Source: Escherichia coli
GTDB taxonomy: Bacteria; Pseudomonadota; Gammaproteobacteria; Enterobacterales; Enterobacteriaceae
Assembly (NCBI RefSeq): GCF_030013205.1
Contig: NZ_CP122648.1
Length of the DNA: 64,000 nucleotides
Direction: 5' to 3' (one strand)
Shown: positions 2,039 through 48,277 of the stretch, piece by piece
How positions within the stretch are numbered: the stretch's first letter is position 1
How the letters are laid out: each line of letters begins with the position of its first letter
Notes under the pieces: generated by a model
The model's database searches: none
Told to the model about the DNA's origin: nothing
Seen by the model: only the letters and a program-made list of their open reading frames with translations
Program-made: the position numbers and the translations under genes

Positions 2039-3925
2039 ATGTCAACCGGATTACGTTTCACACTGGAAGTGGACGGCCTGCCGCCGGATGCTTTTGCGGT
2101 GGTTTCCTTTCATCTGAACCAGTCACTCTCTTCGCTCTTTTCCCTCGATCTCTCCCTGGTCAGCCAGCAGTTTCTCTCCCTTGAATTTGCGCAGGTGCTG
2201 GACAAAATGGCCTACCTGACGATATGGCAGGGCGATGAAGTACAGCGCCGGGTGAAAGGCGTGGTGACCTGGTTTGAACTCGGGGAGAACGACAAAAACC
2301 AGATGCTGTACAGCATGAAGGTGCACCCGCCGCTGTGGCGTGCCGGTCTGCGCCAGAACTTCCGTATCTTCCAGAACGAGGACATCAAAAGCATCCTCGG
2401 CACGATGTTGCAGGAAAACGGGGTGACCGAATGGAGTCCGCTGTTCAGCGAGCCGCATCCTTCCCGTGAGTTTTGTGTCCAGTACGGTGAGACTGATTAC
2501 GATTTCCTGTGCCGGATGGCGGCGGAGGAAGGCATCTTCTTTTATGAGGAGCATGCTTACAAAAGTACCGACCAGAGCCTGGTGCTGTGCGACACAGTCC
2601 GCCATCTGCCCGAATCTTTTGAAATCCCATGGAACCCGAACACCCGTACCGAGGTGAGCACCCTCTGCATCAGCCAGTTCCGCTACAGCGCACAAATCCG
2701 CCCTTCTTCCGTGGTGACCAAAGACTACACCTTTAAACGCCCCGGCTGGGCCGGACGTTTTGAACAGGAAGGCCAGCACCAGGACTACCAGCGCACGCAG
2801 TATGAAGTGTATGACTACCCCGGACGTTTCAAGGGTGCCCACGGGCAGAACTTTGCCCGCTGGCAGATGGACGGCTGGCGAAACAATGCAGAAACCGCGC
2901 GGGGAATGAGTCGTTCGCCGGAGATATGGCCGGGACGACGAATTGTGCTGACGGGGCATCCGCAGGCGAACCTGAACCGGGAATGGCAGGTGGTGGCAAG
3001 TGAACTGCACGGCGAACAGCCACAGGCGGTGCCAGGACGGCAGGGAGCGGGGACGGCGCTGGAGAACCATTTTGCGGTGATCCCGGCAGACAGAACATGG
3101 CGACCACAGCCGTTGCTGAAACCGCTGGTCGACGGCCCGCAGAGCGCTGTCGTGACAGGACCGGCAGGCGAGGAAATCTTCTGCGACGAACATGGTCGCG
3201 TGCGGGTGAAGTTCAACTGGGACCGTTATAACCCGGCAGACCAAGACAGTTCGTGCTGGATCCGTGTGGCACAGGCGTGGGCAGGCACCGGTTTTGGCCA
3301 CCTGGCGATACCACGTGTGGGTCAGGAAGTCATTGTGGACTTCCTCAACGGCGATCCGGACCAGCCGATCATTATGGGGCGCACCTACCACCAGGAAAAC
3401 CGCCCCCCCGGCAGCCTGCCGGGAACAAAGACGCAGATGACCATCCGCTCCAAAACGTACATGGGCAGCGGATTTAATGAGCTGAAGTTTGATGATGCGA
3501 CAGGGAGAGAACAGGTCTACATCCACGCGCAGAAGAACATGGATACCGAAGTGCTCAACGACCGTACCACCACCGTAAAACACGATCACCGCGAAACCGT
3601 AAAAAATGACCAGACGGTCACGATCCAGGAAGGTAACCGCCTTCTTACGGTGGAAAAAGGCCACAAGATCACCGGAGTACTGAAAGGGTCTTTATCTGAG
3701 GATGTCTTTCAGGACAGAGGCACGATTGCCGGTTCGGTGCATGTTGACGCTGTAAACAATGGTGGCGAAGGCGACGGTATACAGGCTTATACGGCGATTA
3801 AGGAAATTTTGCTGGCCGTGGAGGAAAGCAAAATTGCGCTGACGCCGGATGGCATTCAGCTACAGGTCGGGGAATCGACGGTACCGGATCACAGGTGTCA
3901 GTCACACCGACGGGATCCGGCTTAA
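2039..3925 (+). CDS. vgrG: VgrG-family type VI secretion spike protein, apparently C-terminally truncated
   Basis: 628-aa ORF with a GGAGG ribosome-binding site; N-terminus MSTGLRFTLEVDGLPPDAF typical of E. coli VgrG; gp27-like and gp5 OB-fold regions recognisable; ORF ends shortly after the start of the beta-helix repeat region and overlaps the Rhs ORF in another frame. Confidence 0.85.
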   Translation: MSTGLRFTLEVDGLPPDAFAVVSFHLNQSLSSLFSLDLSLVSQQFLSLEFAQVLDKMAYLTIWQGDEVQRRVKGVVTWFELGENDKNQMLYSMKVHPPLWRAGLRQNFRIFQNEDIKSILGTMLQENGVTEWSPLFSEPHPSREFCVQYGETDYDFLCRMAAEEGIFFYEEHAYKSTDQSLVLCDTVRHLPESFEIPWNPNTRTEVSTLCISQFRYSAQIRPSSVVTKDYTFKRPGWAGRFEQEGQHQDYQRTQYEVYDYPGRFKGAHGQNFARWQMDGWRNNAETARGMSRSPEIWPGRRIVLTGHPQANLNREWQVVASELHGEQPQAVPGRQGAGTALENHFAVIPADRTWRPQPLLKPLVDGPQSAVVTGPAGEEIFCDEHGRVRVKFNWDRYNPADQDSSCWIRVAQAWAGTGFGHLAIPRVGQEVIVDFLNGDPDQPIIMGRTYHQENRPPGSLPGTKTQMTIRSKTYMGSGFNELKFDDATGREQVYIHAQKNMDTEVLNDRTTTVKHDHRETVKNDQTVTIQEGNRLLTVEKGHKITGVLKGSLSEDVFQDRGTIAGSVHVDAVNNGGEGDGIQAYTAIKEILLAVEESKIALTPDGIQLQVGESTVPDHRCQSHRRDPA

Positions 3926-6900
3926 ACTGACGTACCACGCCAGCGGCTACCTGAAAGCCATTCACCGCACGGATAACGGCATACAGACGCTGGCGACCTA
4001 CGAACAGGATGCGCGGGGGCGGCTGACAGAAGCGGATGCGCGGCTGGACTACCACCTGTTTTATGAGTACGACGCTGCGGACCGGATCATCCGCTGGTCC
4101 GATAACGACCAGACGTGGAGCCGTTTCACCTACGATGAACAGGGCCGGTGCGTGAATGTCACCGGGGCGGAGGGCTATTACAACGCCACGCTGGACTATG
4201 GTGACGGCTGCACCACCGTGACGGACGGCAAGGGCATTCACCGTTATTACTATGATCCTGACGGCAATATTCTGCGGGAAGCAGCGCCGGACGGCAGCAC
4301 CACCATGTATGAATGGGATGAATTCCATCACCTGCTGGCCCGTCACTCCCCTGCCGGGCGGGTGGAGAAATTTGAATACAACGCCGCACACGGTCAGTTA
4401 AGCCGTTACACGGCGGCAGACGGCGCGGAGTGGCAGTACCGCTATGATGAGCGCGGCCTGCTCAGCAACATCACCGACCCTGCCGGGCAGACGTGGACAC
4501 AGCAGTGTGATGAACGCGGCCTGCCGGTAAGTCTGGTGTCGCCACAGGGCGAAGAGACCCGGCTGGCATACACCGCTCAGGGGCTGCTGTCGGGAATATT
4601 CCGCCAGGATGAACGGCGTCTGGGCATAGAGTACGACCACCACAACCGGCCGGAAACACTCACCGACGTGATGGGCCGTGAACACCACACCGAATACAGC
4701 GGTCACGACCTGCCGGTGAAGATGCGCGGCCCCGGCGGTCAGTCAGTGCGGTTACAGTGGCAGCAGCACCATAAACTGAGCGGCATTGAACGTGCTGGAA
4801 CCGGCGCGGAAGGATTCCGCTACGACCGCCACGGCAACCTGCTGGCCTGGACGGACGGCAACGGCGTTGTCTGGACAATGGAATACGGCCCGTTTGATTT
4901 GCCGGTGGCGCGAACGGACGGTGAAGGCCACCGCTGGCAGTACCGCTACGATAAAGACACGCTGCAACTGACAGAAGTCATTAACCCGCAGGGTGAGTCA
5001 TATCTTTATGTTCTGGATAACTGCGGCCGGGTGACGGAAGAGCATGACTGGGGCGGCGTGGTCTGGCGTTACCGCTATGACGCCGATGGCCTGTGTACCG
5101 CCAGGGTCAACGGCCTGGAGGAAACCATCCTCTACAGCCGGGACGCCGCAGGCCGCCTGGCAGAAGTCATCACGCCGGAAGGCAAAACGCAGTATGCGTA
5201 TGACAAATCCGGCAGGCTTACGGGTATCTTCAGCCCGGACGGCACATCACAGCGCACCGGCTATGACGAACGCGGGCGGGTGAATGTCACCACTCAGGGC
5301 CGACGGGCCATTGAATACCACCACCCCGATGAACACACCGTCATCCGCTGTATCCTGCCACCGGAAGATGAACGCGACAGACACCCCGGTGAATCCCTGC
5401 TGAAAACCACGTACCGCTACAACGCCGCCGGAGAACTGACGGAGGTTATCCTGCCGGGGGATGAGACGCTGACGTTCAGCCGTGATGAGGCAGGACGTGA
5501 AGTGCTCCGGCACAGTAACCGGGGTTTTGCCTGTGAACAGGGCTGGAATGCAGCCGGCCAGTCTGTCAGCCAGCGCGCCGGATTTTTCCCGGAAGAAGCC
5601 ACATGGGGCGGGCTGGTTCCGTCACTGGCGCGGGAATACCGTTATGACAGCGCGGGCAATGTGTCGGCTGTCACCAGCCGGGAAGATTACGGACGGGAAA
5701 CACGGCGGGAATACCGGCTGGACCGGAACGGCCAGGTCACGGCGGTGACAGCCTCAGGCACCGGGCTGGGCTATGGCGAAGGCGATGAGTCCTATGGCTA
5801 TGACAGCTGCGGCTACCTGAAGGCGCAGTCTGCGGGCTGGCACCGGATAAGTGAAGAGACTGACCAGTATGCCGGAGGCCACCGGCTGAAACAGGCCGGA
5901 AACACGCAGTATGACTATGACGCCGCAGGCCGGATGGTCAGCCGCACCAGACACCGTGACGGCTATCGCCCGGAAACAGAGCGGTTCCGGTGGGACAGCC
6001 GTGACCAGCTGACCGGGTATTGCAGCGCACAGGGTGAGCAGTGGGAATACCGCCACGACGCCAGCGGCAGACGAACAGAGAAACGCTGCGACCGGAAGAA
6101 AATCCGCTTCACGTATCTGTGGGACGGCGACAGTATTGCGGAAATCCGGGAATACCGCGATGATAAACTGTACAGCGTACGGCACCTGGTGTTTAACGGC
6201 TTTGAGCTGATAAGCCAGCAGTTCAGCCGGGTACGGCAGGCGCATCCGTCGGTGGCCCCGCAGTGGGTGACACGGACGAATCATGCGGTGAGCGACCTGA
6301 CGGGCCGTCCGCTGATGCTCTTTAACAGTGAAGGTAAAACCGTCTGGCGACCGGGACAGACCAGCCTGTGGGGGCTGGCACTCAGCCTGCCCGCAGACAC
6401 CGGCTACCCGGACCCGCGCGGGGAACTGGACCCGGAAGCCGACCCCGGCCTGCTGTATGCGGGACAGTGGCAGGATGCAGAATCCGGGCTGTGCTATAAC
6501 CGGTTCCGGTATTACGAGCCGGAAACCGGGATGTACCTGGTGAGTGATCCGCTGGGGTTGCTGGGGGGTGAGCAGACTTACCGGTATGTGCCAAATCCGT
6601 GTGGGTGGGTTGATCCGCTGGGATTGGCTGCAAGTTCTAAAATCAGCAGTTTGATGGACTATATTGGCGATGGTCGTCGTGTTAGTGGGCATACGGGTTT
6701 CCTGGATGGGGTTCGTTTATCACGTAGTCAAATAAACAATATTGCTAAAGAAATGGAGAAGCTAGGAATTAAAGTAATAAGGAAAGCAGATAAATATTTG
6801 CCACCAAATGCTAGGGCAGCTTTTGATTATGGCCTTCGCAATATTTATCTTAGGAAAAATGCCACCTTATATGAGGTGTATCATGAAGTGATTCATGCTA

Positions 6901-7079
6901 AGCAATTTGCGAAAATTGGACGAGAAGCATACGAAGCACTAGGACGTTTATCTAGGGAGGAACACGTTCTAAATGAAATATTAAAAAGTAAAAATTTATT
7001 CAATGAAGCGGAAATAGCTCATGCCATAAAATATGTTGAGGGATTGAGAGAAAAATTCATGATGGGACTAATAAATTGA
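3849..7079 (+). CDS. Rhs-family YD-repeat protein lacking the usual N-terminal region, with a C-terminal HExxH-containing tip
   Basis: 1076-aa ORF full of YD repeats (e.g. RYDxxGRL, YxYDxxG); core ends in the hallmark PNPCGWVDPLGL motif (~6590-6630), followed by a ~149-aa AT-rich tip containing HEVIH (6882-6896). The first ATG is inside the repeat region and no PAAR-like N-terminus is present, so this may be a fragment or pseudogene. Confidence 0.8.
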   Translation: MAFSYRSGNRRYRITGVSHTDGIRLKLTYHASGYLKAIHRTDNGIQTLATYEQDARGRLTEADARLDYHLFYEYDAADRIIRWSDNDQTWSRFTYDEQGRCVNVTGAEGYYNATLDYGDGCTTVTDGKGIHRYYYDPDGNILREAAPDGSTTMYEWDEFHHLLARHSPAGRVEKFEYNAAHGQLSRYTAADGAEWQYRYDERGLLSNITDPAGQTWTQQCDERGLPVSLVSPQGEETRLAYTAQGLLSGIFRQDERRLGIEYDHHNRPETLTDVMGREHHTEYSGHDLPVKMRGPGGQSVRLQWQQHHKLSGIERAGTGAEGFRYDRHGNLLAWTDGNGVVWTMEYGPFDLPVARTDGEGHRWQYRYDKDTLQLTEVINPQGESYLYVLDNCGRVTEEHDWGGVVWRYRYDADGLCTARVNGLEETILYSRDAAGRLAEVITPEGKTQYAYDKSGRLTGIFSPDGTSQRTGYDERGRVNVTTQGRRAIEYHHPDEHTVIRCILPPEDERDRHPGESLLKTTYRYNAAGELTEVILPGDETLTFSRDEAGREVLRHSNRGFACEQGWNAAGQSVSQRAGFFPEEATWGGLVPSLAREYRYDSAGNVSAVTSREDYGRETRREYRLDRNGQVTAVTASGTGLGYGEGDESYGYDSCGYLKAQSAGWHRISEETDQYAGGHRLKQAGNTQYDYDAAGRMVSRTRHRDGYRPETERFRWDSRDQLTGYCSAQGEQWEYRHDASGRRTEKRCDRKKIRFTYLWDGDSIAEIREYRDDKLYSVRHLVFNGFELISQQFSRVRQAHPSVAPQWVTRTNHAVSDLTGRPLMLFNSEGKTVWRPGQTSLWGLALSLPADTGYPDPRGELDPEADPGLLYAGQWQDAESGLCYNRFRYYEPETGMYLVSDPLGLLGGEQTYRYVPNPCGWVDPLGLAASSKISSLMDYIGDGRRVSGHTGFLDGVRLSRSQINNIAKEMEKLGIKVIRKADKYLPPNARAAFDYGLRNIYLRKNATLYEVYHEVIHAKQFAKIGREAYEALGRLSREEHVLNEILKSKNLFNEAEIAHAIKYVEGLREKFMMGLIN

Positions 7080-20687: not shown

Positions 20688-20747
20688 CATAATCCCAATG
20701 ATTACTCCCTGACAGGGTTCGTAGGCCACTCAATATCAGGTGCAGTT

Positions 20748-20867
20748 GATGTATCAACACGGTTCAGCAACACCCGATACTTTTTCCAGGCTTCCAGCAA
20801 TGAGGTTTCTTCCTCCGTTGCGATTTCCAGATCCACAGCATCCTGAAGTGGCGCAATATGCTCACTG
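20748..20867. repeat. Direct repeat copy B (~120 bp)
   Basis: Hand alignment to 19699-19818. Confidence 0.8.
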
Positions 20868-21104
20868 GCTACCCTGGCGACGCGCCTTACGCGTTAACCA
20901 GCCTTCTGCTTCCAGCCGTGCGATAGCCGTTCTGACGGTACTCATCCCCGCGCCAATCTGGCGTGCAATGGTTTCAATTGATGGCCAGCACACACCTTCG
21001 TCATTACTGAAATCAGCCAGGCGGGCCATAATTGCCACGCTGGATAACTTCATGCCTGACGCAGCGCAACCATCCCATACATAGCCGGTTAATTTAGTGC
21101 TCAT
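20862..21104 (-). pseudogene. Phage HTH protein (replication-initiator-like N-terminus), truncated / frameshifted
   Basis: 80-aa ORF with HTH (SIETIARQIGAGMSTVRTAIARLE); the homologous continuation ([20 protein letters not shown]...) is in another frame immediately downstream. Confidence 0.5.
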
Positions 21105-21113
21105 GACCGACCT

Positions 21114-21452
21114 CTATTTCCCTGAATTTACGACGAAACTGTTCGAGCGGGCTGAAGCACTCATGCTCATAGCCTTCGCGGAGGTAGATAACCCGTTGTG
21201 TTTCCGGCTCCCAACGAATGACTCTGACGGGTACTCCGTAGTGATCTTTGAACCAGCGGTTAACTTGTCGCAAAGGACTGTCTCCTTCTGCCGGTTGAAA
21301 TCACCCACAGCCCACTCTGCAAAGCTGTGGGTTACAATTTCCCTGTCACCTGGTACATTCACTGCATAGCAATATTCCACCTTCGCTTTTCCACCCGGTA
21401 CAGGAAGCGCAATCAGTTGCGAGCGACGGTAGTGTGTTGTTAAACTGTTCAT
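21114..21452 (-). CDS. Hypothetical phage protein
   Basis: 112-aa ORF; ATGA overlap with the upstream CII-like gene suggests translational coupling. Confidence 0.4.
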
Positions 21453-22018
21453 GCGTTAGTTTCTCCACAACCAGAAGCAATCGACGCCACGACGCCCGGA
21501 GCTGCACACTCGCGGGCGTCATTACTTTCTGAAATGCAAAAAATTTTGTAGACAAGTGCTGCATGCTCCTGCAGCTTCGAAATTGAGAGATACAGCTCGT
21601 CGTTAATTGCTGTCTTCTCATGCGGTTCCACTACACCGTCTTCGATTGCTGAACGAATCTGTTTTGAATAACTGCCGATCTGTTCAATGACTTCCAGCAG
21701 ACGCTGGTTAATATCGGCGTTGTCCACATCCTCGACGTCAGGAAGAGACACAAAGACGCCATTTGCAGACTGCGCCACAGCATCAGCAATGAAGTGAGTG
21801 CCACCAGCACGCTGTAAAACCATTGCCCATCCCAGCGGGAAAATCTGATCGCCATCTGCACGAAGGCGGTTGAATAAAGCGTTTTCTGTTACATCGAGCC
21901 AGTCAGCCGCTTCAGCGTAACCACCCGGCAACGCCGCGATAGTTTTTCTGACAGCTTTCACGTACCACTCAGGCTGTTTTTCTATTTTCCAGTGATGCTT
22001 ACCCACGATTAGCCTCAT
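21449..22018 (-). CDS. Phage CII-like / YdaT-family regulatory protein (putative)
   Basis: 189-aa ORF directly downstream of the cro-like gene in the rightward early operon; assignment by position and general resemblance. Confidence 0.45.
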
Positions 22019-22049
22019 CGTTCTGTGGTTAAAAATTGAAAGTGTTCTG

Positions 22050-22274
22050 CTAATCTTTCGGATAGATATCCGGTCTTAAGTCAGATTTCGTAATTGCACC
22101 TGACGTGCATTGCTCAAGTTTTTTAGCCAGCACAAAACTGGCTTTTTTATAGCCATTGAAAACCAGCCGTAAGTAGCCAGGTGTTGAGCCAACTTTTCCG
22201 GCCAACTCGCCCTGCTGTTCTTTGGTTAAAGAGTCCCAATACGCTTTCATACAATATGTACCTCCGATGTACAT
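22050..22274 (-). CDS. Cro-like / YdaS-family HTH regulator
   Basis: Small ORF divergent from the cI-like repressor; likely true start at MKAYWDSL (22250); HTH-like GSTPGYLRLVFNG segment. Confidence 0.6.
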   Translation of the reverse strand: MYIGGTYCMKAYWDSLTKEQQGELAGKVGSTPGYLRLVFNGYKKASFVLAKKLEQCTSGAITKSDLRPDIYPKD

Positions 22275-22325
22275 ATCACATGATTAAAATGAACCTTCAA
22301 GATACTTGTACCTTAACGGTACAAG
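22258..22325. promoter_or_regulatory. Divergent cI/cro control region with palindromic operator-like sites
   Basis: Perfect palindrome cttgtacc-ttaac-ggtacaag (22305-22325) and tgtacc...gtaca (22258-22274) between the divergent repressor genes. Confidence 0.6.
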
Positions 22326-22340
22326 GGTTTTAATTTCGTT

Positions 22341-23015
22341 ATGAAAACAATCCATGACATCCGGCGGTCTAACGCCAGAAAACTGAGAGATGGTGTTGGC
22401 GGGAATTCTTCCTTTGCCACTATGATTGATCGCGAGCCAACCCAGACCAGCAGGTTTATGGGAGATGGTGCTACTAAAAATATCGGTGACAGCATGGCAC
22501 GACACATCGAAAAATGTTTCGACCTGCCTGTCGGATGGCTCGATCAAGAACACCAGACAACGAACATCACAAAAAAACCTGATGTTTCAATCACTAATAA
22601 ACAAATCACATTAGTCCCTGTCATATCATGGGTACAGGCCGGAGCATGGAAAGAAGTTGGATATTCTGAGGTTGATTTGAGCACAGCAGAAACGTATCCC
22701 TGCCCTGTACCCTGTGGGGAAATGACTTATATCCTGCGGGTGATAGGTGATTCAATGATTGATGAGTACCGCCCGGGAGACATGATTTTTGTCGATCCTG
22801 AAGTACCTGCCTGCCACGGTGACGACGTTATTGCATTGATGCACGATACAGGTGAAACCACCTTCAAAAGGTTGATAGAAGATGGGACACAGCGTTATCT
22901 CAAAGCGTTAAACCCAAACTGGCCTGAGCCTTACATTAAGATCAACGGTAATTGCTCTATAATTGGAACTGTGATTTTCTCAGGAAAACCAAGAAGATAC
23001 AAAATCAAAGCCTAA
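22341..23015 (+). CDS. CI-like phage repressor with LexA/S24 autopeptidase domain
   Basis: 224-aa ORF; N-terminal HTH region and C-terminal S24 domain (GDSM..., TFKRL). Confidence 0.8.
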   Translation: MKTIHDIRRSNARKLRDGVGGNSSFATMIDREPTQTSRFMGDGATKNIGDSMARHIEKCFDLPVGWLDQEHQTTNITKKPDVSITNKQITLVPVISWVQAGAWKEVGYSEVDLSTAETYPCPVPCGEMTYILRVIGDSMIDEYRPGDMIFVDPEVPACHGDDVIALMHDTGETTFKRLIEDGTQRYLKALNPNWPEPYIKINGNCSIIGTVIFSGKPRRYKIKA

Positions 23016-23027
23016 TCAATGTTTATG

Positions 23028-23052
23028 AACCTGCTTCGGCAGGTTTTTTTAT
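23028..23052 (+). terminator. Rho-independent terminator after the cI-like gene
   Basis: aacctgc-ttcg-gcaggtt stem-loop followed by ttttttt. Confidence 0.7.
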
Positions 23053-23054
23053 AC

Positions 23055-23082
23055 TTGACAATGTACCTTTGAGATACATAAT
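23055..23082 (+). promoter_or_regulatory. Candidate early-left (pL-like) sigma70 promoter overlapping tgtacc operator half-sites
   Basis: TTGACA (23055-23060), 16-bp spacer, CATAAT (23077-23082); two atgtacc motifs resembling the cI/cro operator half-sites. Confidence 0.5.
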
Positions 23083-23192
23083 GTACCCAAGAGAAACAAC
23101 AAACAGGCAGGACCCCCACGAAGTATCCGCCTGGGGCATATGAAGTTCAGGATGATTCGTTAGCAACAAAAAAGCGCCCTACAGGACGCTTA

Positions 23193-23204
23193 GCTCTTTA
23201 ACAA
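23193..23204 (+). promoter_or_regulatory. boxA-like element (GCTCTTTAACAA)
   Basis: 12-nt match to the rrn boxA consensus (TGCTCTTTAACAA) about 110 nt downstream of the candidate pL-like promoter. Confidence 0.35.
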
Positions 23205-23229
23205 TCTGGATATCCACAACAGTAGTAAT

Positions 23230-23721
23230 CTACAGATTGCCGTTAAGTTTTCTGGACAACTCCTCAATGGATGGAGGCGATACGTAATCCGGATTTTTAT
23301 TCATCAGAAACTTATTTTCACAGTGGAGGCACCTGCTTTTATGAAAAAGCTCATCTTCGCTAACCGGGAATGGTTGAAGTATCGATACTATCTTTTGTCC
23401 AAAACATTTTGGGCAAAGATGCATGGTTATGCTGCCACCGTTCACGATTACCTCCTTCGAGTATACAAAAGTACCCGACTCAAGTTGGTTAAGGATATAG
23501 CCTTCCGTCTGAGCCTCAAAGTTTTCGAATTCTGCAATTTTAGCTTTGAGAGAAGCATTTATTTCTTGATAAGAGCCCACCAGTTCAACGAGAGACACGC
23601 ATTCGCGCTGAATAGACGCAAGCTTTGAGTTCAGCTCACCAATAGCCGCATTTACTTCAGCTTGAGTTTTTGCCTCGTTCATTAGTTTTGCAATCTGGGC
23701 TGTTTCACGAATAGCCGTCAT
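23230..23721 (-). CDS. Hypothetical coiled-coil protein with C-terminal CxxC...HC zinc-ribbon-like motif
   Basis: ORF 23230-24009; the N-terminal 96 codons look like non-coding read-through, so the probable start is MTAIRETAQ (23721); C-terminus has CPKCFGQ...CLHCEN; oriented antisense to the predicted early-left transcript. Confidence 0.5.
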   Translation of the reverse strand: MTAIRETAQIAKLMNEAKTQAEVNAAIGELNSKLASIQRECVSLVELVGSYQEINASLKAKIAEFENFEAQTEGYILNQLESGTFVYSKEVIVNGGSITMHLCPKCFGQKIVSILQPFPVSEDELFHKSRCLHCENKFLMNKNPDYVSPPSIEELSRKLNGNL

Positions 23722-24030
23722 TGCTGCCGTTAATTCAGCGATCACATTGAATACTCTTATTGTTGTTGGGGATATCCAGATTAACCGAATCCTTGTTGTT
23801 GGGGAATAACCAGGTCCACCTCGCCTGATGTGGCTAAAAGCAGGCACATAACAGCTAAGTATTTTCAACCAGAGAGAATCCTTAGCGTTGTGGTGAATGC
23901 GGCTCAGCGCACGCGGGTTAAGGTTGAGGCTGACAGTCGACCTTCTGTGGATACCCACCCGCCTGGTGTGCAACCTTCGCCAGGCACCGGGAGGCACCCG
24001 GCACCACAACTTTATGCTGTGTGTAGTCCT

Positions 24031-24166
24031 GGCGGTACCAGCTTGTACCCTTGCTTCCGGCTGGTACCGTCCTTTTTACAAAACAGAGAAGAGCATCACC
24101 GGACGACGGGCTCATAACCCAATCCATCCGGGCGGCGGCCACCACAGGTGTTCTTCTCTGTTTTGT
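24031..24166 (+). other. Structured GC-rich non-coding segment: terminator-like hairpin plus U-run followed by a long imperfect hairpin (candidate regulatory RNA or leader)
   Basis: 12-bp stem 24031-24042/24060-24071 followed by ttttt (24073-24077); 16-bp stem 24078-24093/24151-24166 enclosing a GC-rich apical region; no credible ORF. Confidence 0.4.
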
Positions 24167-24214
24167 GGAGAAACTAATCGGCCTTGCAGGGTCGATATGA
24201 TGAGGAGCAGCAAA

Positions 24215-24577
24215 ATGGCTAGCGAACGCAGTACTGATGTGCAGGCATTTATCGGGGAGCTGGACGGCGGCGTATTTGAAACCAAAATCGGCGCAGTTCT
24301 CAGTGAAGTCGCTTCCGGTGTGATGAACACGAAAACCAAAGGTAAGGTCTCACTCAACCTGGAAATCGAACCATTTGATGAGAACCGTGTGAAAATCAAA
24401 CACAAACTCTCATATATTCGCCCGACTAACCGCGGGAAAATTTCCGAAGAAGACACCACCGAAACGCCGATGTATGTCAATCGCGGTGGTCGCCTGACTA
24501 TTCTGCAGGAAGACCAGGGACAATTACTGACTCTTGCCGGTGAACCTGACGGAAAACTCCGCGCAGCAGGTCGTTAA
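24215..24577 (+). CDS. YfdP-like phage protein
   Basis: 120-aa product from MASERSTDVQ with GAGGAG ribosome-binding site; matches the size and sequence I recall for K-12 CPS-53 YfdP. Confidence 0.7.
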   Translation: MASERSTDVQAFIGELDGGVFETKIGAVLSEVASGVMNTKTKGKVSLNLEIEPFDENRVKIKHKLSYIRPTNRGKISEEDTTETPMYVNRGGRLTILQEDQGQLLTLAGEPDGKLRAAGR

Positions 24578-24642
24578 TATCGTTCGTAATAAACTGATTA
24601 TTTATCTCATCACTGAATATCTTTATATAGTGAGGACTTATT

Positions 24643-25467
24643 ATGTCTCAGAACTTAGACGCAACCGCAATTAATCAAATCCATGCCCTTATTTCTGCTC
24701 AGGGTGTTAATGAAATTATCAGTAAGATTGGTGCCGATGCTGTGGCATTGCCTGAGAATTTCCGCATTCATGATCTGGAAAAATTTAATTTAAATCGCTT
24801 CCGTTTCCGTGGTGCACTTTCCACTGCCAGCATCGATGATTTTACCCGTTATTCTAAAGATCTTGCAGATGAAGGCACCCGCTGCTTTATCGATGCCGAT
24901 AATATGCGTGCCGTCAGTGTGCTTAACCTGGGTACTATTGATGAGCCAGGTCACGCAGATAACACTGCCACTCTCAAACTGAAAAAGACAGCACCGTTCT
25001 CTGCTCTGTTGTCTGTTAACGGCGAGCGTAACTCCCAGAAGTCACTGGCAGAATGGATCGAAGACTGGGCCGACTACCTTGTGGGCTTTGATGCTAATGG
25101 TGACGCCATTCAAGCAACAAAAGCGGCTGCGGCAGTCCGTAAAATCACGATTGAAGCAAACCAGACCGCTGATTTTGAAGATAATGACTTCAGCGGCAAA
25201 CGCTCCCTGATGGAGTCTGTCGAAGCGAAGACCAAAGACATTATGCCAGTGGCATTTGAATTTAAATGCGTTCCGTTTGAAGGTCTGAAAGAACGTCCGT
25301 TTAAATTACGCCTCAGCATTATCACTGGCGATCGTCCTGTACTGGTTCTGCGCATTATTCAGCTGGAAGCGGTGCAGGAAGAAATGGCTAACGAATTTCG
25401 TGATCTGCTTGTTGAGAAATTCAAAGACAGCAAAGTAGAAACCTTTATTGGTACTTTCACCGCCTGA
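24643..25467 (+). CDS. YfdQ-like phage protein (DUF2303 family)
   Basis: 274-aa ORF, same length as K-12 YfdQ, directly after the yfdP-like gene. Confidence 0.7.
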
Positions 25468-25594
25468 TTTCATTACTGCAAATGCCCCTGCGGGGGCATT
25501 TATGGAAACGTAATTAACTCAATAATCACCGGATGGTGAGGGCTTCCTTTTACCAGAATTCAGCGCGGTGCAGTGCATATACGTGGAGAACAAA

Positions 25595-26656
25595 ATGTCA
25601 TTTATTAAAACTTTTTCCGGGAAGCATTTTTATTATGACAAGATAAATAAAGACGACATCGATATTAACGATATCGCGGTTTCCCTTTCAAATATCTGTC
25701 GCTTTGCCGGTCATCTTTCGCACTTCTACAGCGTCGCCCAACATGCGGTTCTTTGCAGCCAGCTGGTGCCGCAGGAATTTGCTTTTGAAGCGTTAATGCA
25801 TGATGCAACAGAAGCGTATTGCCAGGACATTCCCGCACCACTGAAACGCCTTCTTCCTGACTATAAACGGATGGAAGAAAAAATAGACGCCGTAATCCGT
25901 GAGAAATACGGGTTATCAACTCAGACAAAGGCAAAGCATCTTGCCATGATAAAGGCCATTCTCCGTGCTGCAGAACGCGACTGGAAGTGGCTGGAAAAAG
26001 CGCCTGTCATCAAGATACCAGCGGTCAGAAACAAGCGAGTCAGATGGCTGGAAAAGGAGGAAGCAAAACGCCTTATTGATGAGTGCCCCGAACCACTGAA
26101 ATCTGTCGTCAAGTTTGCGCTGGCAACTGGTCTGAGAAAGTCGAACATCATAAATCTGGAATGGCAACAAATCGACATGCAGCGACGAGTTGCCTGGGTG
26201 AATCCAGAAGAGAGCAAATCAAACCGCGCCATTGGTGTGGCGCTGAACGATACCGCCTGTAAAGTGTTGCGTGATCAAATAGGCAAGCATCACAAATGGG
26301 TGTTTGTACATACCAAGGCGGCTAAGCGAGCAGATGGAACATCAACGCCTGCGGTCAGGAAGATGCGCATCGACAGCAAGACATCATGGCTATCAGCTTG
26401 TCGTCGTGCAGGAATTGAAGATTTCCGTTTCCATGACCTCAGACACACCTGGGCAAGCTGGCTGATCCAGTCAGGCGTCCCATTATCTGTGCTTCAGGAA
26501 ATGGGCGGATGGGAGTCCATAGAAATGGTTCGTAGGTATGCTCACCTTGCGCCTAATCATTTGACAGAGCATGCAAGGAAAATAGACGACATTTTTGGTG
26601 ATAATGTCCCAAATATGTCCCACTGTGGAATTATGGAGGATATAAAGAAGGCGTAA
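25595..26656 (+). CDS. Chimeric ORF: YfdR-like HD-domain N-terminus fused in frame to a tyrosine-integrase catalytic domain (likely inactive integrase remnant)
   Basis: N-terminal ~105 aa [14 protein letters not shown]...[10 protein letters not shown] (HD motif); C-terminal ~240 aa with integrase signature [11 protein letters not shown]...VRRYAHL, ending 16 nt from the tRNA 3' end; the integrase arm/core-binding N-terminus is absent. Confidence 0.7.
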
Positions 26657-26671
26657 CTGATTGAATTGTAA

Positions 26672-26748
26672 TGGCGCGCCCTGCAGGATTCGAACCTGCG
26701 GCCCACGACTTAGAAGGTCGTTGCTCTATCCAACTGAGCTAAGGGCGC
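26672..26748 (-). tRNA. argU: tRNA-Arg (anticodon UCU)
   Basis: 77-nt sequence whose reverse complement is GCGCCCTTAGCTCAGTTGGATAGAGCAACGACCTTCTAAGTCGTGGGCCGCAGGTTCGAATCCTGCAGGGCGCGCCA; cloverleaf and UCU anticodon readable by eye. Confidence 0.93.
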
Positions 26749-48148: not shown

Positions 48149-48277
48149 GTCATACCACTCGCCTGATTATTTTTAGCTATGTTGGATTTTGCCACGGTTT
48201 ATACCGTGGCTTTTTTTGCGGTAAATTCAGGTAAAAAACGGATGCGGGATAAAATGCATCCGCTCTAATGGCAAGAG

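Follow-up and report, generated by a model that had tools for sequence, protein, structure and literature searches.

How might a lambdoid prophage, of a group reported to lack the N protein, carry transcription from its early-left promoter (pL) across an accessory gene that faces the other way? The question is raised by a 64,000-nucleotide (nt) stretch of Escherichia coli DNA (NCBI RefSeq assembly GCF_030013205.1, contig NZ_CP122648.1), here called the window, in which a pL-type promoter is followed by a boxA element, a gene on the opposite strand and the genes yfdP and yfdQ. A first-pass annotation, made from the letters alone, had singled out positions 23055 to 23204 as a possible early-left promoter coupled to a nut-like site. 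The sequence elements and the way in which they are conserved, oriented and found together were observed directly, and from them boxA is probably (we put it at about 60%) an N-independent loading site for Nus factors, of the type found in ribosomal RNA operons (rrn) and phage T7, which would let pL transcription cross the untranslated antisense cassette. The boxA module appears to be undescribed within the searchable literature.

The element itself was present as first described, a boxA-like sequence that agrees with rrn boxA at 12 of 13 positions (AGCTCTTTAACAA, 23192-23204). Its match to GYTCTTTAANA is exact, this being the functional gamma-proteobacterial consensus derived from rrn and suhB sequences and from mutational data (PMC5725501); the coordinates of all features are collected in Table 1. 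Conservation was assessed in modules located without the use of boxA, by means only of the 3' arm described below and its best complementary partner 200-1000 nt upstream, which yielded 70 unique contexts. boxA was identical at 12/12 positions in 53 of these, carried one mismatch in 13 and two mismatches in 1. Positions 1, 3-7 and 11 were invariant and variation fell mostly at position 10, the N of the consensus, nine of the changes being C to A at this position, while entropy was 0.5-1.9 bits in the 1-3-nt linker, in the hairpin loop and in the sequence past the arm. Random windows drawn from the same loci gave a best match to boxA that still contained 5-6 mismatches. The chance of exact 12-mer identity with rrn boxA is ~6e-8 per site, and it is not credible that such a 12-mer arose and persisted by chance.

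The orientation of boxA was constant. On its strand yfdP lay downstream in 97/97 segments and yfdQ in 91/91, and an S24-type cI lay upstream in 80/80; the suggestion that the element is placed for transcription through the antisense gene toward yfdP and yfdQ was thus borne out, and the element is genuine and conserved. An 86-nt query consisting of the leader end, hairpin A, boxA and the 5' arm was matched in 19% of complete E. coli genomes (1018 of 5426). boxA was kept in copies whose cargo gene is down to 55-72% identity or has been swapped for unrelated genes, and likewise in those whose upstream hairpin has given way to a non-homologous one that is no terminator. In Klebsiella phage Kp4882-1 the repressor is a different one and the cargo gene has only ~72% DNA identity, yet an identical GCTTAGCTCTTTAACAATCT stands after the same hairpin, whose loop differs; in SfIV this hairpin and boxA recur ahead of entirely different genes. 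The longer 17-mer GCTCTTTAACAATCTGG (to 23209) recurs unchanged in the early leader of T7, where it stands downstream of promoter A3 and ahead of gene 0.3.

A TTGACA-type promoter, a short hairpin and GCTCTTTAACAATC were also seen in series in many unrelated viral contigs (L017, L029, L043, L061, L083, L089, L114, L033 and others), two of which continue into apparent tRNA genes. It seems that a consensus boxA is widespread in the early leaders of phages, well beyond T7.

Read on the pL-sense strand, the module begins with the hairpin and boxA, continues with the 5' arm and a cargo of 340-824 nt, and closes with the 3' arm. Viral contigs were searched by cargo protein and by 3' arm, and ~190 copies were recovered, representing 60-70 unique sequence contexts, with cargos of at least four unrelated types. 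Whatever the cargo class, the largest gene was on the opposite strand. The classes were PHROG 1244 proteins (to 55% identity), two kinds of small membrane protein, an SfIV_36-like protein accompanied by a small sense open reading frame (ORF), and a 98-amino-acid (aa) protein. In the window the pL-sense RNA past boxA is antisense to the cargo gene for ~540 nt and contains no convincing sense ORF. Pfam and PADLOC scans gave no assignment for the antisense cargo proteins, the window gene matching only PHROG 1244, and a relationship of the membrane-protein cargos to SieB was dropped, K-12 SieB being unrelated by eye. The sense ORF of the SfIV-type cassette (L005, 1786-2007, plus strand; also L225 and L240) is conserved, encodes ~70 aa, starts 46 nt past boxA and converges on the antisense SfIV_36; it is absent from the annotation of the SfIV record.

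Two unrelated hairpins were found upstream of boxA. The type A hairpin, AAAAAAGCGCCC-loop-GGACGC, has a stem that is conserved and a loop that is variable across copies; it is a terminator on the minus strand, the only strand flagged by the terminator scan, and on the plus strand, where it stands 1 nt upstream of boxA, it contains a C.A mismatch. The type B hairpin, GCCGGA-N12-TCCGGC, has no T-tract and is therefore not a terminator. In the window boxA falls between the stop codon of the antisense gene (23230) and the terminator of that gene. The idea that boxA is a mere upstream flank of this terminator was weakened by the type B copies, which keep boxA next to a non-terminator hairpin.

The module is separable from the promoter leader that precedes it. 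This leader (from ~23098) is common to phages with other immunity regions and stands before hairpin A in most module copies. SfV keeps it only to 23160 and Ayreon diverges soon past the promoter; boxA is absent from both, though both have the promoter and SfV the leader too, and boxA as a part of the conserved pL leader was accordingly ruled out. In a Rac-type prophage with a non-S24 repressor, what precedes the type B module is not a promoter leader but a ydaF-like ORF, and the repressor gene is several hundred bases away; this position indicates that boxA moves with the antisense cassette and not with pL. SfV carries a gene on the sense strand, orf33, at the module position and has no boxA, for which reason boxA was read as a device against polarity that accompanies opposite-strand cassettes as they move. 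A mini-ORF of 7 codons (MKFRMIR-stop) was noticed in the pL leader at 23140-23163 (plus strand), with GGGG before it and its stop just ahead of hairpin A; its core, GGATGATTCG, is conserved in many module-bearing phages.

boxA leads directly into the 5' arm of a predicted long-range helix, whose partner lies beyond the cargo. The duplex of the 5' arm with 23755-23783 was calculated at -31 kcal/mol (RNAduplex). Arms were judged by duplex energies, as indels in the distal arm make the alignment columns unreliable for covariation. All 60 arm pairs gave duplexes of 20-29 bp with energies of -26 to -34 kcal/mol, compared with -8.9 when the 3' arm was shuffled. Because Watson-Crick pairs are equal on both strands, any difference in energy between the strands reflects G.U pairs against A.C mismatches. 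The pL-sense duplex was the more stable in 16/18 protein-anchored variants, which are related to one another, and in 51/60 arm pairs, in which the 3' arm was fixed by the search pattern; these energies hint that pairing may matter in the pL-sense transcript. A degenerate second copy of the 3' arm, CCTTGTTGTTGGGGAATAACCAGG, is found at ~23791-23812 (plus strand), 28 nt past the first, and could be an alternative partner for the 5' arm.

The promoter from which this transcription would begin lies where it had been proposed, a near-consensus TTGACA-16-CATAAT directly past the cI terminator, and was the top promoter-like site within 21800-25000. Promoter-like sites in this interval numbered 4, compared with 4.8 in shuffles, so a consensus promoter match alone proves nothing. 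The two atgtacc motifs that had been likened to cI/cro operator half-sites, at 23061 and 23081, proved each to form the left half of a 19-bp dyad (TGTACC-N5-GGTACA), the two dyads having centres 20 bp apart. A dyad scan of the whole 64 kb placed them with the cI-cro operators: just three dyads scored at least 11/12, two in the cI-cro intergenic region and one in the pL spacer, and those scoring at least 10/12 numbered 8 compared with 2.1 in shuffles. The stretch equivalent to 22256-22324 is annotated in the SfV record as a putative operator region.

Five sequences of the promoter region were aligned, those of the window, of the phages SfV, SfIV and Ayreon, and of L035, a diverged prophage. No change was seen in either promoter hexamer or in the operator half-sites, and substitutions in the two operators were confined to the central 5 bp, with the OL2 halves ATGTA/GAAACA kept, as is expected of repressor operators. 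The cI terminator was also invariant in SfV, SfIV, Ayreon and L035 and is annotated as such in the records of the first and third of these, and the Ayreon record annotates a promoter at exactly the same position. BLAST found the region in functional phages, with 99% identity in PhiR29_1 and PhiR49_1 and partial matches in SfIV, SfV, Ayreon, cdtI and Stx2c phages. The promoter is on the same strand as cI, immediately after its terminator, carries cI-type operators and points to yfdP/yfdQ, the integrase remnant and tRNA-Arg. The early-left promoter suggested by the first-pass annotation is well supported, 23055-23099 being assigned as that of an SfV/SfIV/e14-type lambdoid prophage, with transcription predicted to start at ~23089-23090. 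This promoter and operator part is ordinary and in effect already known from SfV-type phage records.

As at lambda pL/OL, repressor operators of the type found in the cI-cro region overlap the promoter in more than one copy, and the repressor is LexA-like with an S24 self-cleavage domain. The arrangement differs from that of lambda in having two 19-bp TGTACC-N5-GGTACA dyads rather than three operators, and in having no N gene or nutL boxB past the promoter, the first sense genes being yfdP and yfdQ. The resident LexA-like cI would silence pL through its two dyad operators, one over the spacer and -10 hexamer and the other over the start site, and loss of cI, for example during SOS, would free transcription toward yfdP, yfdQ and the integration end.

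Once released, the polymerase would reach ~100 nt into the pL transcript a separate mobile module built around an opposite-strand gene. In rrn and CRISPR transcripts boxA, with NusB/E, NusA, NusG and SuhB, gives protection from Rho (PMC5725501, PMC7665894), and boxA alone stops Rho termination of a long untranslated RNA (PMC7665894). By the same route boxA (GCUCUUUAACAA) in the prophage transcript would recruit NusB/NusE, and then NusA, NusG and SuhB, to the elongating polymerase without the need for a phage N protein, and the polymerase so modified would withstand Rho over the untranslated antisense stretch. The T7 early leader is probably another case of such recruitment. The rrn antitermination complex also lowers intrinsic termination in vitro (PMC6614801), and the modified polymerase may in addition read through the small RNA (sRNA)-type intrinsic terminator (~24031-24078) ahead of yfdP. 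For rrn it has been proposed that boxC, through the anchoring of boxA, stays at the RNA exit while the trailer is still to come, and that the leader-trailer helix then formed is cleaved by RNase III (PMC10250234). More tentatively, anchoring of boxA might keep the 5' arm near the RNA exit until it pairs with the emerging 3' arm, which would loop out the antisense segment in a helix that mirrors the rrn leader-trailer helix and might be a substrate for RNase III.

A wider proposal, tentative and rather doubtful as a whole, is that N-less lambdoid prophages carry a portable rrn signal (boxB-like hairpin, boxA and leader-trailer helix) that brackets backward-facing accessory genes; host Nus factors and SuhB would be recruited against Rho, and the antisense RNA would be looped out and perhaps cut by RNase III, in a generic adaptor for opposite-strand genes within an operon.

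The resemblance to the boxB-boxA-boxC signal of rrn includes the boxA core, a hairpin just upstream of boxA and a proposed action that calls for no phage protein, together with, by prediction, the 5' strand of a long-range helix downstream of boxA whose partner lies beyond a long untranslated RNA. The module differs from rrn in that boxC (UCUGUGUGGG) is absent, only UCUG being common to both, in that its arm abuts boxA directly where the rrn arm is 18-19 nt away, and in that its loop would be the antisense of a protein gene, ~0.35-0.8 kb long, and not rRNA; Nus binding and RNase III cleavage are here suggested by analogy. T7 has the same 17-mer downstream of its early promoters for host polymerase, but is a virulent phage with no antisense cassette or long-range arms. 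The T7 early-leader sequence has reportedly been called boxA, although neither T7 record examined annotates it. A further parallel is HK022 put, an RNA signal that works in cis within the early operon of a lambdoid phage devoid of N. Its RNA has two stems and needs no Nus factors to act on the polymerase directly, whereas the conserved element here is a single-stranded boxA. The boxA elements of the CRISPR leader and the suhB 5' untranslated region (UTR) (Stringer 2020; Baniulyte 2017) are, like this one, stand-alone consensus elements in transcripts that are not rRNA, and that of the CRISPR leader has the role proposed here, a long untranslated RNA being shielded from Rho; the present boxA differs from both in its setting in a prophage early operon with complementary flanking arms and an antisense gene.

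Up to now only a put-like mechanism has been guessed at for the N-less lambdoid group (PMC12315714). A conserved and correctly oriented consensus boxA is a concrete candidate answer to how these phages pass terminators and untranslated stretches. If this is true, a prophage target joins the short list of non-rRNA targets of Nus factors, so far suhB and CRISPR arrays, and a design rule is suggested by which opposite-strand accessory genes, perhaps defence or exclusion genes, are tolerated within phage operons.

Several points weigh against a Nus-dependent role. Matches to GYTCTTTAANA in the window numbered 2 compared with 0.23 expected, which is not significant, and one was an evident chance match in a coding region; the significance of the site at 23193 rests on the comparative data. 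The last bases of boxA and the TCTGG that follows are part of the inverted repeat, and their conservation is confounded with it. Hairpin A clearly suits the minus strand, where it has a U.G wobble and a T6 tail, and not the plus strand, where it has a C.A mismatch, so that the antisense gene also has its 3' end in this region, whose conservation could in part serve that role. Nor is boxA obligatory for crossing antisense genes: SfV-type phages manage without it, and so does K-12 Rac, in which sieB is antisense and the KilS sRNA is present while the boxA module is missing. The preference of the arm duplexes for one strand is biased, the search pattern having fixed the 3' arm and the variants being phylogenetically related, and it is possible that the arms act at the level of DNA. 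The antisense RNA has a C/G ratio of 1.1-1.4, mildly Rho-friendly, which decides nothing. The copy in the window is in a decayed prophage of 7 kb and may have ceased to be of consequence to the cell. Transcription start, repressor binding, Nus binding, antitermination and helix formation are all predictions from the DNA sequence.

These points are shared in part by the rival explanation that carries most weight, unlikely though we consider it, in which boxA has no Nus function and is just the conserved end of a swappable cassette, preserved because it serves the antisense gene as 3' UTR and terminator context, or because it is a homologous linker for the exchange of lambdoid accessory genes. 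It is consistent with the position of boxA between the antisense stop codon and the terminator (23191-23172), with the high conservation around different cargos of both cassette ends and not of boxA alone, with arms that could equally be inverted repeats at the DNA level, and with SfV and K-12 Rac, which do without boxA. A cassette end of this kind does not, however, explain exact identity to the rrn 12-mer, the concentration of variation at the one consensus-free position while linker and loop bases drift, or the retention of boxA beside a replaced hairpin that is no terminator; nor does it explain the same 17-mer in the T7 early leader and the promoter-hairpin-boxA layouts of unrelated phages.

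It is improbable that boxA is repressive as in suhB, with bound Nus factors blocking translation of a nearby sense ORF and promoting Rho termination so as to damp early-left expression. The small sense ORF of the SfIV-type cassette begins at a distance from boxA within that used by Baniulyte et al. (PMC5725501), but in the window and in most copies no sense ORF follows boxA and the next ~540 nt are antisense to a gene.

Less probable still, and very much so, is the nut-like site to which the first-pass annotation had coupled pL, a lambda-type nutL of boxA and boxB recognized by an N-like phage protein that renders the polymerase resistant to termination. boxA is present in the early transcript and correctly positioned downstream of pL, but no conserved hairpin follows it and the copies differ beyond ~20 nt. 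The boxB-like hairpin that was to be looked for was not found as a conserved structure 3' of boxA, where the sequence is the long-range arm; the palindrome TGGATATCCA was rejected as boxB, being part of that arm and not a conserved local stem. The suggested N-like protein likewise found no counterpart, as the window ORF list held no such ORF and no small Arg-rich ORF in the early-left region, no profile search for N having been made. SfII/SfV/SfIV-type phages are reported to be without N, cII and cIII (PMC3851460), and N is noted as lacking in LLS/ST64B-type phages, which have early-left operons of the yfdP/Q/R type (PMC12315714). On the pR side, within the region examined, no consensus boxA was found, the only candidate being ACTCTTTAACCA inside cro with 2 mismatches that include critical positions. 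The coupling also fails because boxA is not tied to the promoter, being wholly absent from SfV and Ayreon and lying away from it in the Rac-type phage.

That boxA is a chance similarity and the promoter a chance consensus match is practically negligible, for although promoter-like sites are no commoner than in shuffles and a coding region contains a second boxA match that arose by chance, it is contradicted by conservation, by operator architecture and by an orientation that is constant over ~190 contigs. The second match, TGCTCTTTAACAG at 6316-6328 (plus strand), is also 12/13 and exact to GYTCTTTAANA; it is read in frame (LMLFNS) in an ORF of 1076 aa (3849-7079) and looks like chance.

The window is chromosomal DNA of E. 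coli and matches swine ETEC strains at 100% identity. The element is carried by a lambdoid prophage remnant of ~7 kb, located at ~19.4-26.7 kb of the window at tRNA-Arg and beside fimZ. The immunity region that it has kept is of the e14/SfV type, and the translation of its cI was the same as that of SfIV cI when compared with the SfIV ORF translation. The gene order is cI, terminator, promoter, yfdP, yfdQ, integrase (int) remnant and tRNA-Arg, with the antisense 171-aa gene and a GC-rich structured region between promoter and yfdP; the layout is that of the lambda early-left region, in which cI, terminator and promoter are followed by genes toward int and att. The fusion of yfdR with the integrase gene is a deletion scar, from which the prophage was judged to be a remnant.

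Table 1. Coordinates of the prophage features described in the window
Feature	Position	Strand	Remarks
ymfL	21449-22018	-	Immunity region
cro/ymfT	22050-22250	-	Immunity region
cI/cro operator region	22256-22324		Two best dyads: 22256-22274 (11/12) and 22306-22324 (12/12)
cI repressor (ymfK/LexA-family)	22341-23015	+	From the ORF list; Peptidase_S24 PF00717, E 1.5e-26; ymfK in RefSeq
cI intrinsic terminator	23027-23053	+	8-bp stem and 4-nt loop (stem-loop 23027-23046), then T-run
pL-type sigma-70 promoter	23055-23082	+	TTGACA, 16-bp spacer, CATAAT; 11/12 match
Operator OL1, ATGTACCTTTGAGATACAT	23061-23079		Predicted operator; dyad 11/12; occupies promoter spacer and beginning of -10 hexamer
Operator OL2, ATGTACCCAAGAGAAACAA	23081-23099		Predicted operator; dyad 10/12, weaker; over end of -10 hexamer and start site
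Conserved early-left leader	23098-23160	+	Ends in GGATGATTCGTT; phage BLAST matches begin at ~23098
Hairpin A	23166-23191	-	Intrinsic terminator of the antisense gene; GCGTCC-TGTA-GGGCGC and T6 on the minus strand
boxA, GCTCTTTAACAA	23193-23204	+	Exact match to functional consensus GYTCTTTAANA
5' arm, AATCTGGATATCCACAACAG	23203-23222	+	Shares the last two bases of boxA
Antisense cargo gene	23230-23745	-	171 aa, WP_000559922; coiled-coil N-terminus, Cys-rich C-terminus; phrog_1244, E 9e-60
3' arm	23755-23783	+	Core TTGTTGGGGATATCCAGATT, 23763-23782
STnc100/KilS/DicF-type sRNA region	23857-24080	+	RF02076, 42.4 bits against a gathering score of 47, E 1.6e-7; full-length match
yfdP and yfdQ	24215-25467	+	First sense-strand protein genes of the early-left operon
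yfdR-int fusion ORF	25568-26656	+	N-terminal yfdR-like HD-domain part and C-terminal integrase part
tRNA-Arg attachment site	26675-26748		Adjoins the yfdR-integrase fusion ORF

Rfam scans, at gathering and at permissive thresholds, found no known cis-regulatory RNA at 23055-23230, the only notable neighbour being the match to STnc100, which falls just short of the threshold. This putative sRNA region ends in a 13-bp hairpin and U-tract (~24031-24078), the 3' hairpin giving a weak match to DicF, and is annotated by RefSeq as a frameshifted hypothetical protein. The equivalent slot holds STnc100, DicF or KilS across SfV, L169 and K-12 Rac, KilS being annotated in the last; STnc100 and PasD are described prophage sRNAs. 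Right past the sRNA-type terminator a long hairpin of ~25 bp, ACAAAACAGAGAAG...CTTCTCTGTTTTGT, was found at 24078-24170 (plus strand), its 5' strand taking in the U-tract of the terminator, and the fold z-score of 23990-24215 was -4.6.

Other Rfam matches above threshold were recorded. In SfV (L002) C4 antisense RNA and isrK were matched at 2961-3149 (minus strand), in the early-right region around orf37. At the opposite end of the window prophage IS009 was matched at 20745-20944 (minus strand, 133.7 bits) among fragments of tail-fibre-assembly genes, and elsewhere in the window the STnc480 sRNA was matched at 48155-48221 (minus strand, 84.9 bits).

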